Shown here in pieces: positions 2,853 to 27,170 of a stretch of 29,240 nt of DNA (position 1 is the first letter of the stretch; each line of letters opens with the position of its first letter). The notes beneath the pieces are model-generated. The model saw nothing but the letters and a program-made list of their open reading frames with translations, was not told the origin of the DNA and did not search any database. The position numbers and the translations under genes were made by a program. Source of the DNA: a virus; UHGV virus genome UHGV-0275034. One strand, given 5' to 3'.

Positions 2853-3567
2853 GTTAATAAATGGCAATGCCATCAAAATGACAAGCATTGAAATCGCTGA
2901 GTTGGTGGGTAAGCGTCATGACAATGTGAAACGTACCATCGAAACGCTGGCTAAGAATGGTGTTATCCGGCTTCCTCAAATTGAGGATTGTGGAAGAATC
3001 AATGGGTTAGGCTTAAATCAAAGTTTTTGTGTGTATGCATTCGAAGGCGAACAAGGAAAGCGAGACAGTATTGTCGTTGTAGCCCAGTTGTCGCCGGAAT
3101 TCACCGCTCGTCTTGTTGACCGTTGGCGAGAGCTTGAAGAAACTGCGGTTAATATCCCCAAAACGCTACCAGAAGCGTTGCGCCTTGCTGCTGATCTTGC
3201 TGAGCAGAAAATGCAACTGGAAAACCAGCTCGCAATTGCCGCACCTAAAGTTGAGTTTGCCGATCGCGTTGGCGAGGCCAGCGGAATTTTGATTGGAAAC
3301 TATGCAAAGGTTGTTGGAATTGGTCCAAACAAACTGTTTGCGTGGATGCGCGATCACAAAATCCTTATTGCTTCAGGTTCCCGGCGCAATGTGCCAATGC
3401 AGGAATATATGGATCGCGGCTATTTCACAGTGAAAGAAACAGCGGTCAACACAAATCACGGAATACAGATATCGTTCACCACAAAAATCACCGGGCGTGG
3501 TCAACAGTGGCTGACCAGAAAGCTGCTCGATAACGGAATGCTGAAAGTAACAGGGGAGGCTGCTTAA
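2845..3567 (+). CDS. Rha-family phage regulatory protein with C-terminal KilA-C/ANT domain (antirepressor-like)
   Basis: N-terminal region has the Rha signature (TSIEIAELVGKRHDNV); C-terminal half resembles the ANT/KilA-C antirepressor domain. Confidence 0.65.
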   Translation: MNELINGNAIKMTSIEIAELVGKRHDNVKRTIETLAKNGVIRLPQIEDCGRINGLGLNQSFCVYAFEGEQGKRDSIVVVAQLSPEFTARLVDRWRELEETAVNIPKTLPEALRLAADLAEQKMQLENQLAIAAPKVEFADRVGEASGILIGNYAKVVGIGPNKLFAWMRDHKILIASGSRRNVPMQEYMDRGYFTVKETAVNTNHGIQISFTTKITGRGQQWLTRKLLDNGMLKVTGEAA

Positions 3568-3857
3568 TGGCTAACCTACGCAAAGAAGCGCGCGGAAGAG
3601 AATGCCAGGTACGTATTTACGGCGTATGCAATGGCAATCCTGAAACCACAGTTCTGGCACATTACCGGATGGCTGGAATTTGCGGAACGGGAATGAAGCC
3701 TGACGACCTGATCGGCGCATGGGCTTGTAGTGACTGCCACGCGGAGATCGACCGACGCACCCGGATTCTCGACAACAAAGACGCCAGACTTTACCACCTC
3801 GAAGGCGTGATCAGGACGCAGGCGATACTGCTGAAGGAGGGGAAGATTAAGTCATGA
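3567..3857 (+). CDS. ybcO: YbcO-like putative nuclease (DUF1364 family)
   Basis: 96-aa product with the Cys/His pattern RGRECQVRIYGVCNGNPETTVLAH ... CSDCHAEIDRR that I recall from DLP12 YbcO; start overlaps the upstream stop (TAATG). Confidence 0.65.
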   Translation: MANLRKEARGRECQVRIYGVCNGNPETTVLAHYRMAGICGTGMKPDDLIGAWACSDCHAEIDRRTRILDNKDARLYHLEGVIRTQAILLKEGKIKS

Positions 3858-22926: not shown

Positions 22927-23163
22927 GTACAAATCCTTCAGCGTATCAAACACCATCTTCTTAACAAGTTCGGACTGCTCATCAGCGATGCGTTCCGCAT
23001 CGTCTCGATAGCCTGAAATTTTGGATGGCTTTGATACAGCATCAGTAACTATCTGAACTAATTCTGAATTAAGAGAGCGGCCATTGGATTTGGCTCGCTG
23101 TTTTAGTTTTTCCTTTAATTCGTAAGGTAGCCGCAGATTAAATTGCGGGTCATCTCTTCCCAT
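22912..23163 (-). CDS. mnt: Mnt repressor (ribbon-helix-helix, immI region)
   Basis: 83-aa product that matches P22 Mnt as I recall it, especially the C-terminal GYRDDAERIADEQSELVKKMVFDTLKDLYKK. Confidence 0.85.
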   Translation of the reverse strand: MGRDDPQFNLRLPYELKEKLKQRAKSNGRSLNSELVQIVTDAVSKPSKISGYRDDAERIADEQSELVKKMVFDTLKDLYKKPT

Positions 23164-23226
23164 TCTTGATGCCTCGCTTTTGTGAGTGGATCGGCATCTT
23201 ATTATCTGCTGGTTGCATCCTCAATA

Positions 23227-23241
23227 AGACCACAGTGGTCT
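23227..23241. promoter_or_regulatory. Candidate Mnt operator: perfect 15-bp palindrome AGACCACAGTGGTCT
   Basis: Perfect inverted repeat in the mnt-tailspike intergenic region; its CCAC-N-GTGG core resembles the P22 mnt operator as I recall it. Confidence 0.55.
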
Positions 23242-23309
23242 CTTTGTTTGATTAATAATGCATCACTGTGGCAATGCTGCGGCGATTCCTTGTATCTGGA
23301 GCAAATTAA

Positions 23310-24746
23310 ATGACAGACATTACAGCCAATGTTGTAGTCAGCATGCCTTCGCAACTCTTCACTATGGCTCGTTCTTTTAAAGCCGTAGCTAATGGAAAGA
23401 TTTATATCGGTAAAATTGACACTGACCCAGTAAATCCTGAAAACCAGATTCAGGTTTATGTAGAGAACGAAGACGGCTCTCATGTTCCCGTTTCGCAACC
23501 AATCATCATTAACGCCGCTGGTTACCCTGTATATAACGGACAGATTGCCAAATTCGTAACTGAGCAAGGCCATTCTATGGCTGTTTATGATGCGTATGGT
23601 GCACAGCAGTTCAAATTCCCAAATGTGCTGAAGTATGACCCGGATCAGTTAAGAGTAGTTTTGACTGGACAGTCTGGTGATGGACTTAAGAATTTTTATG
23701 CTGGCTCAGGATGGACTGGTTCAGATGCAGCTGGTGACAATATTTATAACAATGAAACTATCATATATAAAAATGCTACACGACAGAGATTCTCCATACC
23801 AGAAACACCAATTCCAGATCCCATTATTTGGCTGGAAAAAATTAGTTCTGCAACTAGGGATGACGGCATCAAACGATGGGATCAGGGGGTAATTTATAAC
23901 TCTTTGCGCAAGGTGTCAGGAAGTGCATATACATGCACAACTACAAGTGTTGCTAAGCATGAGGGAGGGAATGGGCATTCAATTGGTCACCACATGCGTG
24001 GAGAATCAAGAAATCCGCAAGCCGAAACATGGGGGGGGTGGTCATATGGTGCAGTATTAGGAGATGCAGTGCAGAATGGAGCGATTAGCACTATTGCACA
24101 TGAATTTAATCTGAATAATCGAGGTCCCGATAAAGGATGGATGGAGAATGCACTGCAAGGATCTGTAAGAGGGTTGGTATGTGTAACTCAGGATAAAAGC
24201 AATCCAGTAACACAGATGATTACCATCGGAAGAGGGAGTGAAGCTCCAAATGGTTATATCTGGACAGGAATGTTGTTTAGAGGTAATTCTATTTCCACTC
24301 CAACAGAGGAACTAACCGAGGTAGGTAATGGCGAATACATCAGACTTGAGGGATCTCTATCATCTGGAGCTGCAAACGGCATTAGATTTAGAACAAATTA
24401 TTTTAGGAGTGGAATTTCATTTTCTGAAGCTAGATTTTCAAACAACTGCGCAATTTTGATGGGCGACAATCAACGAATTACGGTAGGAACGGGCCCGGCA
24501 AATACAACACATTTGAGTTTCAACAGGGCTGAGAACTGGGCTAACTTCAACAACTTAAGAATACGACTTAATGGCAATCAAGTTATTTCAGAGAGGAGGA
24601 CGGGATGGGGATCGCCAACCGGCACCGTATCCCGAGCAGCATTTAACTCTGGAACAATAACTCACGAAGATTTAGCAAAGGTAGTTGCAGCATTAATTCA
24701 GGACTTACATGCTTCAACCGGGCATGGATTAATTGGTTTAACTTAA
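23310..24746 (+). CDS. Tailspike / receptor-binding protein (P22 gp9-like N-terminal head-binding domain, divergent short distal domain)
   Basis: First roughly 115 aa closely parallel the P22 gp9 N-terminus ([11 protein letters not shown] ... [13 protein letters not shown][13 protein letters not shown] ... LKYDPDQ); the remainder is unrelated and AT-richer; total 478 aa. Confidence 0.8.
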
Positions 24747-24758
24747 CAGGACAATAAA

Positions 24759-24944
24759 ATGGATAAGCAAACTATTCAAAATATCATGCAGTTTATGCTT
24801 CGCGTAAATCTTAGCGGTCATGAAGTTCCTGCTTTTAATTCTTCAATGAATGCATTACAGGCTGAATTAGATCGCGAAAATGACCAGCCACTCCAGCGAG
24901 TACTAAATGCTGCTCACAATGAACCTGTTACGGAGAATGATTAA
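24759..24944 (+). CDS. Small hypothetical protein (61 aa) downstream of tailspike
   Basis: ORF with a weak RBS, tightly linked to the next small gene. Confidence 0.4.
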   Translation: MDKQTIQNIMQFMLRVNLSGHEVPAFNSSMNALQAELDRENDQPLQRVLNAAHNEPVTEND

Positions 24945-24945
24945 A

Positions 24946-25152
24946 ATGAAAACAGAAAGCGGTGCTTTCAAATTTGACGGTGGAGAGGTTAAAGGAATTA
25001 ACAGCATTGCCATTATTGAGGTGCGCGGTAACGGGTGGGGCGCTGGTTTTTATTTTAAGCCAAATACTGCCGTTAAAGTCGATGGTAATAAGCCTGATCT
25101 GAACGAGTTTCGTGATTCCTGCGCATTGTCGGTAATGACTCCAACTTACTGA
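24946..25152 (+). CDS. Small hypothetical protein (68 aa) downstream of tailspike
   Basis: ATG 24946 with GGAGA 9 nt upstream; begins 2 nt after the stop of the preceding small ORF. Confidence 0.45.
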
Positions 25153-25307
25153 TAGTGTTTTATATTCAGATAATGCCCGATGACTTTGTCATGCAGCTCC
25201 ACCGATTTTGAGAACGACAGCGACTTCCGTCCCAGCCGTGCACCAGGCTGGTTCAGAATCATGTTCTGCTGATTTTGTCCGGCGGCAGAACGCAATTTGC
25301 CAGAGTG

Positions 25308-25433
25308 ATGGGAAGGGCATTAATCACGGATGATGGTGAAGCGATCGAAGTGGAGGCGGCGGAAGAGGTGGAGGTGATGTGGCGTGTTACGTACTTCATC
25401 AACAGCGCGCTGCAGGATGGCGTGGTGGTGTGA
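25308..25433 (+). pseudogene. Coding-like fragment resembling the 3' end of a protein gene (41 codons from an internal ATG)
   Basis: Open frame ending ...VMWRVTYFINSALQDGVVV*, with no plausible full-length gene upstream (in-frame stop at 25209); a degenerate second copy lies at 25532..25678. Confidence 0.25.
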
Positions 25434-25688
25434 TGGGTGGCATTACCCCACCTTTTCATCAATCCAGTCCGCCCACCACTGCAGCATGTCTCTGCATTTA
25501 TCGTAGTTGATGCATCACTATCACCCTGTAATGGCTTATTACTGGTTTGCATACAGGTAGGCATGAACAGATACCTACACATGAAGATGGAACTAGTCCG
25601 GATGCGATATTTTTGGTGATCACGTACATCATCAACGAAGCGCGTTATGTTGAGTTTTATGACTGCCAAGTAATGTGAAAATTGCGAT

Positions 25689-25712
25689 GCGTACCAAATT
25701 GTGTACCAAATT
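25689..25712. repeat. Tandem arm-type repeats GCGTACCAAATT / GTGTACCAAATT (putative integrase arm sites)
   Basis: Two adjacent 12-bp copies; three more related copies lie at 25939..25985, just upstream of int. Confidence 0.6.
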
Positions 25713-25938
25713 AAAATCATAAACCATGAAACCCTTACTCATGGCTGTTCTCAGGCTGGGTGCGTGTAATCGTGAAAGAGGAAGGTAGGTTGTTTATCTG
25801 TGTCTGTCATTGTCTAGCATTGTCCACTGTAGTTAATTAACTGTCTGTTATAACTCGAAAAACAACCATTTTTTCACCTGAGTATGTCTACGAACGTCAA
25901 ATATAGTTGTTTACTGTGCGCTGTTGTCCATGTGATAT

Positions 25939-25985
25939 TGTGTACCAGATGTGTACCAAACTATTATTTCTGAGCGTACCAAATA
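25939..25985. repeat. Three arm-type repeats (TGTGTACCAGA, TGTGTACCAAA, GCGTACCAAAT) immediately upstream of int
   Basis: Same GTACCAaA core as the copies at 25689..25712; together they bracket about 230 bp. Confidence 0.6.
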
Positions 25986-25991
25986 TTATTT

Positions 25992-27170
25992 ATGGCTATA
26001 AGCGACACAAAACTGCGTACTATTTATGGTAAACCATATTCGGGCCCACAAGAAGTGGCTGATGCCGATGGCCTCAGCGTACGAATTTCACCGAAGGGGG
26101 TCATCCAGTTCCAGTACCGCTATCGCTGGCATGGCAAGCCTAATCGACTTGGGCTTGGTCGATACCCATCCCTGTCTTTGAAGGATGCCAGACAGATCAC
26201 TGCTGACTTGCGAAAGCTCTATTTCTCAGGAACGGATCCACGCACCTATTTTGAAGAGAAGGTGGAGAACTCCATGACGGTCGCCCAGTGTCTCGACTAC
26301 TGGTTCGACAACTACGTCTCTACAACTCTCAGAGAAAAGACCCAGGCACTTTACCGATCAACGGTTATGAAGCGCATGCATGACGCCTTTCCTAATCGTC
26401 CGGCATCTTCTATCACGGTTAAGCAATGGGTTGACCTGCTTACCGAAGAAGAAAGAGATAATCCACGCCGAGCAAGGCAGGTGCTAAGTCAACTAAGATC
26501 AGCAATAAGTTGGTGCATGCGGCGTCAGTTGATAGATAGTTGCGCAATTATGAGCATCCAACCAAGGGACTTCGGCTCCCGCGCTGAGGTAGGGGATCGG
26601 GTACTGTCGTATCACGAACTGGCTAAGATTTGGCTTGCTATTGAAAGAAGCCGTGCGTCTACGTCAAATAAGCTCCTTCATCAGATGCTTATGCTGTGGG
26701 GGGCGAGGCTCTCAGAGCTTAGGCTGGCAACAAAGACAGAATTTGACCTGCTGGACAACGTATGGACCGTACCGAAAGAGCATAGCAAGATGGGTAATGT
26801 TATCCGCCGTCCAATCTTCGAACAAATTAAGCCTTTTCTCGAAAAAGCCATGACAACGTACAATGATGTTCTTTTCCCTGGAGAAGACATAAACAAACCG
26901 ATCAGCATCGCTGCAGCCAACCGATTCGTAAATAGAATAAGGGGAGGGATGGATCTGGGTTACTGGCGAACACATGATTTCAGAAGAACGCTTGTTACAC
27001 GTCTGTCCGAGATGAATGTCGAGCCTCATGTTACTGAGCGAATGCTCGGTCATGAACTTGGCGGGATAATGTCAGTATACAATAAACACGACTGGATAGA
27101 GGCTCAGCGCAAAGCGTATGAGCTTCACGCTGATAAATTGTTCTGGCACATCAGGAGCATTTCTGATTAA
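25992..27170 (+). CDS. int: Tyrosine site-specific integrase (P4-type)
   Basis: 392-aa product with catalytic-domain signatures (RLSELRL, HDFRRT, LGHELGG ... SVYNKH); lies adjacent to the arm-type repeats. Confidence 0.9.
   Translation: MAISDTKLRTIYGKPYSGPQEVADADGLSVRISPKGVIQFQYRYRWHGKPNRLGLGRYPSLSLKDARQITADLRKLYFSGTDPRTYFEEKVENSMTVAQCLDYWFDNYVSTTLREKTQALYRSTVMKRMHDAFPNRPASSITVKQWVDLLTEEERDNPRRARQVLSQLRSAISWCMRRQLIDSCAIMSIQPRDFGSRAEVGDRVLSYHELAKIWLAIERSRASTSNKLLHQMLMLWGARLSELRLATKTEFDLLDNVWTVPKEHSKMGNVIRRPIFEQIKPFLEKAMTTYNDVLFPGEDINKPISIAAANRFVNRIRGGMDLGYWRTHDFRRTLVTRLSEMNVEPHVTERMLGHELGGIMSVYNKHDWIEAQRKAYELHADKLFWHIRSISD

Follow-up and report, generated by a model that had tools for sequence, protein, structure and literature searches.

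Two short open frames without evident starts lie between the tail genes and the integrase of a temperate phage and end in related peptides, which raises the question of whether they are the displaced end of a host gene or the remains of genes that the phage itself once carried. The window, meaning the whole stretch of 29,240 nucleotides that was analysed (UHGV virus genome UHGV-0275034), is of the P22-like (Lederbergvirus) type, and the region belongs to its late and integration segment. The tailspike gene is followed by two small ORFs, the studied region, a 392-aa integrase and an AlpA-type gene on the opposite strand (Table 1). The window contains a contiguous attP with both arms around one core, so it represents an excised or virion form and not an integrated prophage. 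With a probability of roughly 85%, we conclude that both fragments, here called A and B, are non-functional 3' relics and that they stem from two diverged versions of a single accessory ('moron') gene of phages.

Table 1. Features of the studied region and its surroundings, in window coordinates unless another record is named
Feature	Position	Strand	Remarks
Tailspike gene with P22-type head-binding N-terminus	23310-24746
Small phage ORF, 68 aa, 3' of the tailspike gene	24946-25152	+	Same CDS annotated in the EF5-18-41 prophage (L001 3847-4053)
IS1 relic: terminal inverted repeat and about 100 bp of the transposase gene 3' end	25131-25241	-
Fragment A: codons 41-105 and stop of a 105-aa UmuD'-like prophage gene	25236-25433	+
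intS relic, argW type: last 20 codons and stop, ending in DKCRDMLQWWADWIDEKVG	25443-25503 (61 nt)	-
Fragment B: HumD-family (pre-processed UmuD'-like) pseudogene, cut at about codon 45	25494-25678	+
attP region, sbcB (phage 2851) type, putative	25689-25984	+
Phage-borne surrogate sbcB 5' end, predicted: MTDTDKQPTFLFHDY, then out of the gene	25751-25810	-	From translation
att core GTAATCGTGAAA, 12 of the 13 bases of the published 13-bp core CGTAATCGTGAAA	25766-25777
Integrase, phage 2851/Sf101/mEp234 type, 392 aa	25992-27170	+	97-99% nucleotide identity to their int
Intact 79-aa and UmuD'-like gene loci of relatives	L008 3132-3688; L005 1594-2574; L007 2617-3176

The two open frames

Frame A is open from 25212 to its stop at 25431-25433 and ends in VMWRVTYFINSALQDGVVV, and frame B runs to a stop at 25676-25678 and ends in LVITYIINEARYVEFYDCQVM. 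Both were present as the original prediction had described them, and a sensibly placed ATG start is absent from each, the sole candidates being the TTG codons at 25275 and 25547. The visible relatedness of the two tails at the nucleotide level also held up. Their best local alignment pairs 25389-25409 with 25622-25644 (20 of 21 matches and a 2-nt gap) at a score of 30, against 16.5 +/- 2.3 for dinucleotide shuffles, and neither the 1000 shuffles nor 600 real segments taken from the window included one that scored as high. Fragment B had been taken for a single open frame, and here the description needed correction: the tail frame stands, but the upstream piece at 25494-25562 lies in another frame, and the whole is a frameshifted pseudogene. 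The direct similarity of the two peptides is weak when taken alone, extending over 8 residues (blastp E 0.015), so the case for homology must run via intact relatives.

Fragment A and the adjoining IS1 relic

In a BLAST comparison with complete E. coli genomes, window positions 25000-25503 were 98% identical to a P22-like prophage integrated at argW in strain EF5-18-41 (L001), and over the longer stretch 23000-25503 the identity to this prophage was 98.9%. Beyond the matching stretch, EF5-18-41 has an intact, oppositely oriented intS and, behind it, tRNA-Arg. At the homologous place in strain EC31 (L008) we observed an intact cassette of two genes encoding proteins of 79 and 105 aa, the latter gene convergent with intS and separated from it by 9 bp between the CDSs. 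Fragment A is 94% identical in nucleotides to EC31 (L008 3491-3758, the intact gene there spanning 3371-3688), and at the protein level it shares 95% identity with residues 44-105 of the EC31 product and 69% with the counterpart in Enterobacter phage LAU1.

Nucleotide homology to the intact 105-aa gene begins at window position 25236, which corresponds to codon 41. The 5' 120 nt of the gene are missing from this locus, as is the upstream 79-aa partner gene, and what is left encodes the last 62% of the protein, without the N-terminal arm and about 40% of the fold. Gly89, nearly invariant in our alignment of the 105-aa family (alignment A1), is replaced by Trp in both the window and EF5-18-41. 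NCBIfam and Pfam searches with fragment A gave no family. A 52-aa ORF within it (TTG start, 25275-25433) carries the PGAP label 'hypothetical protein' in EF5-18-41.

Upstream of fragment A, the IS1 terminal inverted repeat GGTAATGACTCCAACTTA is contiguous with the 3' end of insB, which identifies the stretch as IS1, with 111 of 768 bp left as a relic. BLASTN aligned 25131-25269 with IS1A in L002 at 92%, the true identity stopping at 25241, and PGAP annotates a partial IS1 family transposase on the homologous stretch of EF5-18-41. The relic and fragment A join within a 6-bp microhomology, CCGTGC (25236-25241). This junction is internal to IS1, so it is a deletion scar and not a transposition end. 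The 68-aa ORF 3' of the tailspike gene takes its last six codons and stop (VMTPTY) from the IS1 inverted repeat, its native C-terminus having been replaced.

Fragment B and the HumD family

The two frames of fragment B correspond to HumD positions 46-68 (25494-25562) and 86-129 (25547-25678), and its 5' cut adjoins the intS relic. The NCBIfam model NF051876 matched it at positions 87-129 (E 6.8e-9) and 45-71 (E 0.0036). The tail scored 35.8 bits and the middle piece 17.2 bits, against 221.8 bits for the intact gp28 of phage HK140 and a curated cutoff of 120 bits over about 129 positions. Fragment B is a fragment of a HumD family member and not itself a member: it scores below the cutoff, its frame is interrupted and it has no UmuD' start. 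A blastp comparison with HK140 gp28 gave the same two pieces, residues 46-68 (25494-25562) and, in the other frame, 86-125 (25547-25675). The HK140 gene is intact, encodes 129 aa, is annotated as a 'UmuD-like protein' and lies directly before the annotated attP and a near-identical integrase. Its product is 66% identical over 128 residues to HumD of bacteriophage P1 (McLenigan et al. 1999, J Bacteriol 181:7005, as cited in PMC8460599).

Window positions 25442-25794 were 96.6% identical to the attR side of an sbcB/dacD prophage in E. coli c1-17 (L003 4014-4366), a stretch on which PGAP places a 'HumD family translesion DNA polymerase; frameshifted; incomplete; missing N-terminus'. Relative to the longer HumD relic of phage Sf101, which has an in-frame stop, fragment B has lost 67 nt, and this deletion explains the frameshift. 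The conserved Gly of the last strand is changed in both relics, to Trp in A and to Leu in B.

Relationship of both fragments to UmuD'

UmuD' arises by self-cleavage of UmuD at Cys24/Gly25. The intact 105-aa and 129-aa proteins have a common N-terminus, MGFPSPA.DYVEQR, which is the N-terminus of UmuD'. This start (M-GFPSPA.DYVEQ) was observed in HK140 gp28, LAU1, EC31 and MDK9L1 and is absent from the 5'-truncated A and B. The two intact gene types also occupy the same genomic position, each preceded by a 79-aa gene (68% identity between these homologues), and a tblastn search with HK140 gp28 as query found genes of the 105-aa family in Klebsiella phages (residues 1-120, E 2e-7). Within the tails, the motif VTYFINSA / ITYIINEA aligns with the C-terminal segment GVVIHVVKA of UmuD.

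A search of 1.8 billion cluster representatives returned 163 relatives of the 105-aa protein, and the subfamily comprises 784 clusters at 90% identity and 163 at 50%. A profile of 34 of its sequences was searched against the PDB, and profile positions 1-97 matched UmuD residues 24-137 (8gmt_B, E 5.2e-10). Further matches were to 1umu (E 3e-9) and 1ay9 (E 0.0022), the second being a shorter UmuD chain that was matched only from profile position 9 onward. This similarity along the full length of the profile would place the 105-aa parent of A in the UmuD'-like fold / Peptidase_S24 superfamily. Pfam PF00717 was absent from the LAU1 protein and from fragment A in a Pfam search, NCBIfam and Pfam searches with the LAU1 protein matched the N-terminal 21 residues alone, and single-sequence phmmer searches of the PDB matched the N-terminal arm and nothing more. 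The Ser-Lys dyad of UmuD (Ser60/Lys97) is not conserved in the 105-aa family, the Ser60 loop being deleted in the alignment. Because the family is without this loop and Lys97, its members are predicted to be incapable of acting as a self-cleaving peptidase.

These comparisons establish the homology of A and B, which are the tails of diverged UmuD'-like genes, B from the 129-aa HumD type and A from the 105-aa subtype without the catalytic Ser60 loop. In the intact relatives the moron gene is the last after the tail genes, behind its 79-aa partner and before the integrase/att module, an arrangement found for the two gene types in HK140, LAU1, EC31 and MDK9L1.

The 105-aa subfamily has no Pfam domain, and its members are mostly labelled 'hypothetical', with some RefSeq phage copies labelled 'UmuD-like protein'. 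In a few longer members (e.g. P0147, 141 aa) the protein is extended at the N-terminus as in UmuD and retains the Cys-Gly cleavage site, and such proteins may be intermediates between UmuD and the pre-processed forms. In intact relatives the UmuD'-like gene is always preceded by the 79-aa gene (MPR..DIHAAF...YWILRNMGRV), which the window does not have, and HK140 has a dinI homologue beside the two. Together, the 79-aa and UmuD'-like genes look like a small, SOS-related group of accessory genes at the end nearest att of lambdoid and P22-like prophages.

The intS relic and the attachment site

The intS CDS of EF5-18-41 (L001 4344-5501) maps onto the window from 25443, and the identity ends at 25503. 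A segment of about 60 bp of intS is also present in modules of the phage 2851 type, at 81-90% identity, and this relic, common to both parental module types, is the probable crossover zone. The EF5-18-41-type match stops at 25503 and the sbcB-type match starts at 25442; the overlap is the intS tail only, and within it the SNPs of the window change from one parental type to the other. The intS tail lies beside a HumD relic in all 2851-type modules examined (2851, 1717, several Stx phages, Sf101, E212 and mEp234). The HumD relic covers positions 45/46-129 in Sf101 and E212, and the Stx phages have a shorter one (positions 73-129) together with the intS tail. The cut at about codon 45 is common to these modules, so the truncation is old and shared.

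The 13-bp att core reported for Sf101 (PMC4159516) is matched in the window by TGTAATCGTGAAA (25765-25777), with one mismatch, a T instead of a C at 25765. The core as we define it is the overlap of an attL-type match (L002, window 25766-26100) with the attR-type match (L003, window 25442-25794), and the core sequences were compared with the annotations of phages 1717 and mEp234. It maps to sbcB codons 7-16 and lies 88 bp beyond the stop of fragment B. A core of this sequence upstream of int marks a putative attP of the phage 2851 type, and HK140 and mEp234 annotate attP at the matching place. A pattern search found five direct G(T/C)GTACCA(A/G)A(T/C) repeats, two to the left of the core (25689, 25701) and three to the right (25940, 25951, 25974). 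All copies with at most one mismatch in the 29-kb window fall inside this 300-bp attP region, and the five repeats are probably arm-type Int sites.

On the minus strand, positions 25810-25766 encode MTDTDKQPTFLFHDY, which we predict to replace the first 15 codons of host sbcB upon integration. In 14EC017, a lysogen-type strain that carries the module, SbcB starts with MTDTDKQPTFLFHDYETFG, exactly the phage-encoded N-terminus. The sbcB gene of K-12 starts with MMNDGKQQSTFLFHDYETFG, and the K-12 N-terminus MMNDGKQQSTFLFHDY is the one replaced in 14EC017. E. coli chromosomes still carry the intS tail and HumD relic on the attR side, as a scar upstream of dacD (L002 7824-8247; L003 4014-4366); 14EC017 is one of them, even though IS1 has truncated its 2851-type integrase gene on the sbcB side.

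Probable assembly of the locus

The order and mechanism given here are the most likely ones on comparison of present-day sequences. IS1 would have inserted behind the small ORFs that follow the tailspike gene in an argW-integrating P22-like phage, and a deletion from inside IS1 via CCGTGC would then have taken out the 79-aa gene together with codons 1-40 of the 105-aa gene. The state after this deletion is present today in E. coli EF5-18-41. Independently of this, the final 60 bp of an intS gene would have been joined illegitimately to a HumD gene in the forerunner of the sbcB-type (phage 2851) modules, truncating HumD at about codon 45; no intermediate for this join was found in our comparisons. 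A homologous crossover within the 60-bp intS tail could next have exchanged intS and attP(argW) for the truncated HumD, attP(sbcB) and the 2851-type int, which would leave the two relics 60 bp apart. The loss of 67 nt from fragment B, with its frameshift, would have come later.

Both relics are tails, and heads may have been lost more readily because the 3' ends adjoin parts that are needed, the int stop for A and the attP arm for B, so that deletions would eat in from the 5' side only. Among 5,426 complete E. coli genomes, 27 had fragment A alone and 57 had fragment B alone; none had the A-B pair, and none matched 25100-25990 in one place with a coverage of 80% or more. IMG/VR viral contigs and GTDB species representatives did not contain the exact gapped pattern CTTCATCAACAGCGC-N(90-110)-GATGCATCACTATCACC. 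The components themselves (IS1, a HumD/UmuD'-like moron gene, IntS and a 2851-type attP) have all been described, and their combination is ordinary phage mosaicism.

Alternative readings of the two tails

The original prediction favoured a phage that inserts into a host protein gene and brings along surrogate 3' ends that make it whole again, perhaps duplicated over successive integrations; we regard this reading as very improbable. Its appeal lies in the neighbourhood. Both fragments are near attP, in lysogens nothing of the phage separates the HumD relic from host dacD, and a prophage with an intact 104-aa copy has that gene as its outermost one, next to yciB. The surrogate-end principle is also at work in this phage, though at the 5' end of sbcB. 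Since such a relic or copy stands last before host genes, a BLAST match would seem to end at a prophage junction. The search for a parent gene proposed with the prediction did find parents, and the relic does adjoin a prophage junction (at dacD), but the parents are phage genes and not host genes. They are full genes with their own starts, in HK140 (gp28), LAU1 and the EC31 and MDK9L1 prophages. A surrogate end must, moreover, overlap or adjoin the att core, whereas A ends at 25433 and B at 25678, both short of the core at 25766-25777. The empty site of K-12 consists of the 208-bp dacD-sbcB intergenic region and the start of sbcB and has no umuD-like gene, and fragment A comes from an argW (tRNA) module, in which int, with its 3' end next to A, stands between A and att. 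The position of the core and the phage-borne intact copies thus speak against a replacement host end, and it is the remnant of a decayed cargo gene, also envisaged at the outset, that describes both fragments, intact phage parents having been found for each.

Related tails on the same strand, about 245 bp from stop to stop, might also be expected if the tail of one cargo gene had been duplicated in tandem in situ and had then diverged. Beyond the 21-nt patch, however, A and B are not alignable in nucleotides, and each has closer relatives elsewhere: A is 94-99% identical to argW-type and B 95-98% identical to sbcB-type prophages, each of which carries one only. An antisense intS relic separates the two, and the pair was observed in no complete E. 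coli genome, viral contig or GTDB representative. This reading is as improbable as that of host-gene ends. That the tails resemble each other by chance is the least credible explanation of all. The direct peptide match of 8 residues (E 0.015) would allow it, but the nucleotide patch outscored every shuffle and every real segment, and the tails belong to two homologous families and take up the same terminal segment in each. The profile results already refute a chance resemblance. Two separately acquired relics of diverged moron genes remain our preferred reading.

Residual function and spurious reading frames

As they stand in the window, the relics most probably have no function. We consider it unlikely that something still works here, be it a mini-protein made from the 52-aa TTG ORF or, at the DNA level, a contribution of fragment B to the P arm of attP. 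PGAP does call the 52-aa ORF in EF5-18-41, the annotated attP of HK140 overlaps the last 30 nt of its UmuD-like gene, every 2851-type module examined retains at least HumD codons 73-129, and the first arm-type repeat begins 11 bp past the stop of B. Against this stand the loss from both relics of the N-terminal arm and a large part of the fold (about 40% in A), the Trp at the nearly invariant Gly of A, the frameshift of B in the window and the in-frame stop of the Sf101 relic. One promoter-like site was found in 24700-26100, below the shuffle mean of 2.9, at 24760-24787 and well upstream of both fragments, and an Rfam search of the region gave no family, with zero matches at E up to 1. Three terminator-like hairpins were observed, one inside the intS relic (25480-25496), one on the minus strand between B and the core (25746-25722) and a third upstream.

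A minus-strand ORF of 153 aa with an ATG start (25259-25720) was rejected as a gene. It runs antisense to three unrelated relics joined at breakpoints, namely fragment A, the intS relic and fragment B, and is almost certainly spurious. RefSeq contains a similar call over the HumD relic of Sf101 (gp17, L006 2927-3175, minus strand).

A tentative and rather doubtful proposal is that the relics are retained as DNA, the intS tail as a portable homology 'linker' for module exchange between P22-like and lambdoid phages and the HumD 3' end as part of the attP P arm, and that the intact cassette tunes host SOS mutagenesis. If this were true, the 60-bp intS tail, present in all sbcB-type modules examined, would let phages exchange whole integration modules. 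The intact cassette, with its 79-aa and loop-less UmuD'-like proteins and, in HK140, the adjoining dinI, may be an uncharacterised prophage module that tunes SOS mutagenesis.

Significance and comparison with known systems

The locus matters little for general biology. It is a clear example of the scars that temperate phages carry: one deletion mediated by IS1, one illegitimate join of older date and, in a 60-bp relic, a proposed homologous crossover that would have changed the chromosomal site of integration from argW to sbcB. For annotation it is useful in that three calls are probably not genes, namely the antisense ORF of 153 aa, RefSeq Sf101 gp17 and the 'hypothetical protein' of 52 aa. 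In drawing prophage boundaries, a gene tail beside a prophage junction is not necessarily the end of a host gene.

Compared with UmuD and UmuD' (8gmt, 1umu, 1i4v, 1ay9; PF00717), the 105-aa family has an alignable arm, GFPSPAADYVEQ, and its segment EVMGRVTYFIN corresponds to the C-terminal DVFGVVIHVV. The family differs in being without about 11-14 residues around Ser60 and in having Ala or Arg at the position of Lys97. Like P1 HumD (NF051876), the intact phage relatives start at the UmuD' N-terminus and are made already 'cleaved', whereas the HumD-type gene of the window is dead, being 5'-truncated and frameshifted, with its conserved Gly replaced and a score of 35.8 bits.

The argW-type (IntS) P22-like prophage of EF5-18-41 has likewise an IS1 relic, a fragment A with the change from Gly to Trp and the intS stop region. 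Such prophages, e.g. those of EF5-18-41 and EC31, continue through a full intS and argW, whereas the window retains only 61 nt of intS. With the integration module of 2851, 1717, Sf101, mEp234, HK544 and HK140 the window shares an integrase 97-99% identical in nucleotides and 12 of the 13 core bases, and with Sf101 and the Stx phages it shares a HumD relic and an intS-tail relic to the left of attP. HK140 differs from the window in that its HumD gene is intact. Unlike in the sbcB-type phages, the module in the window is joined to a P22-like late region that carries the earlier argW-type relics, namely the remnant of IS1, fragment A and the intS tail.
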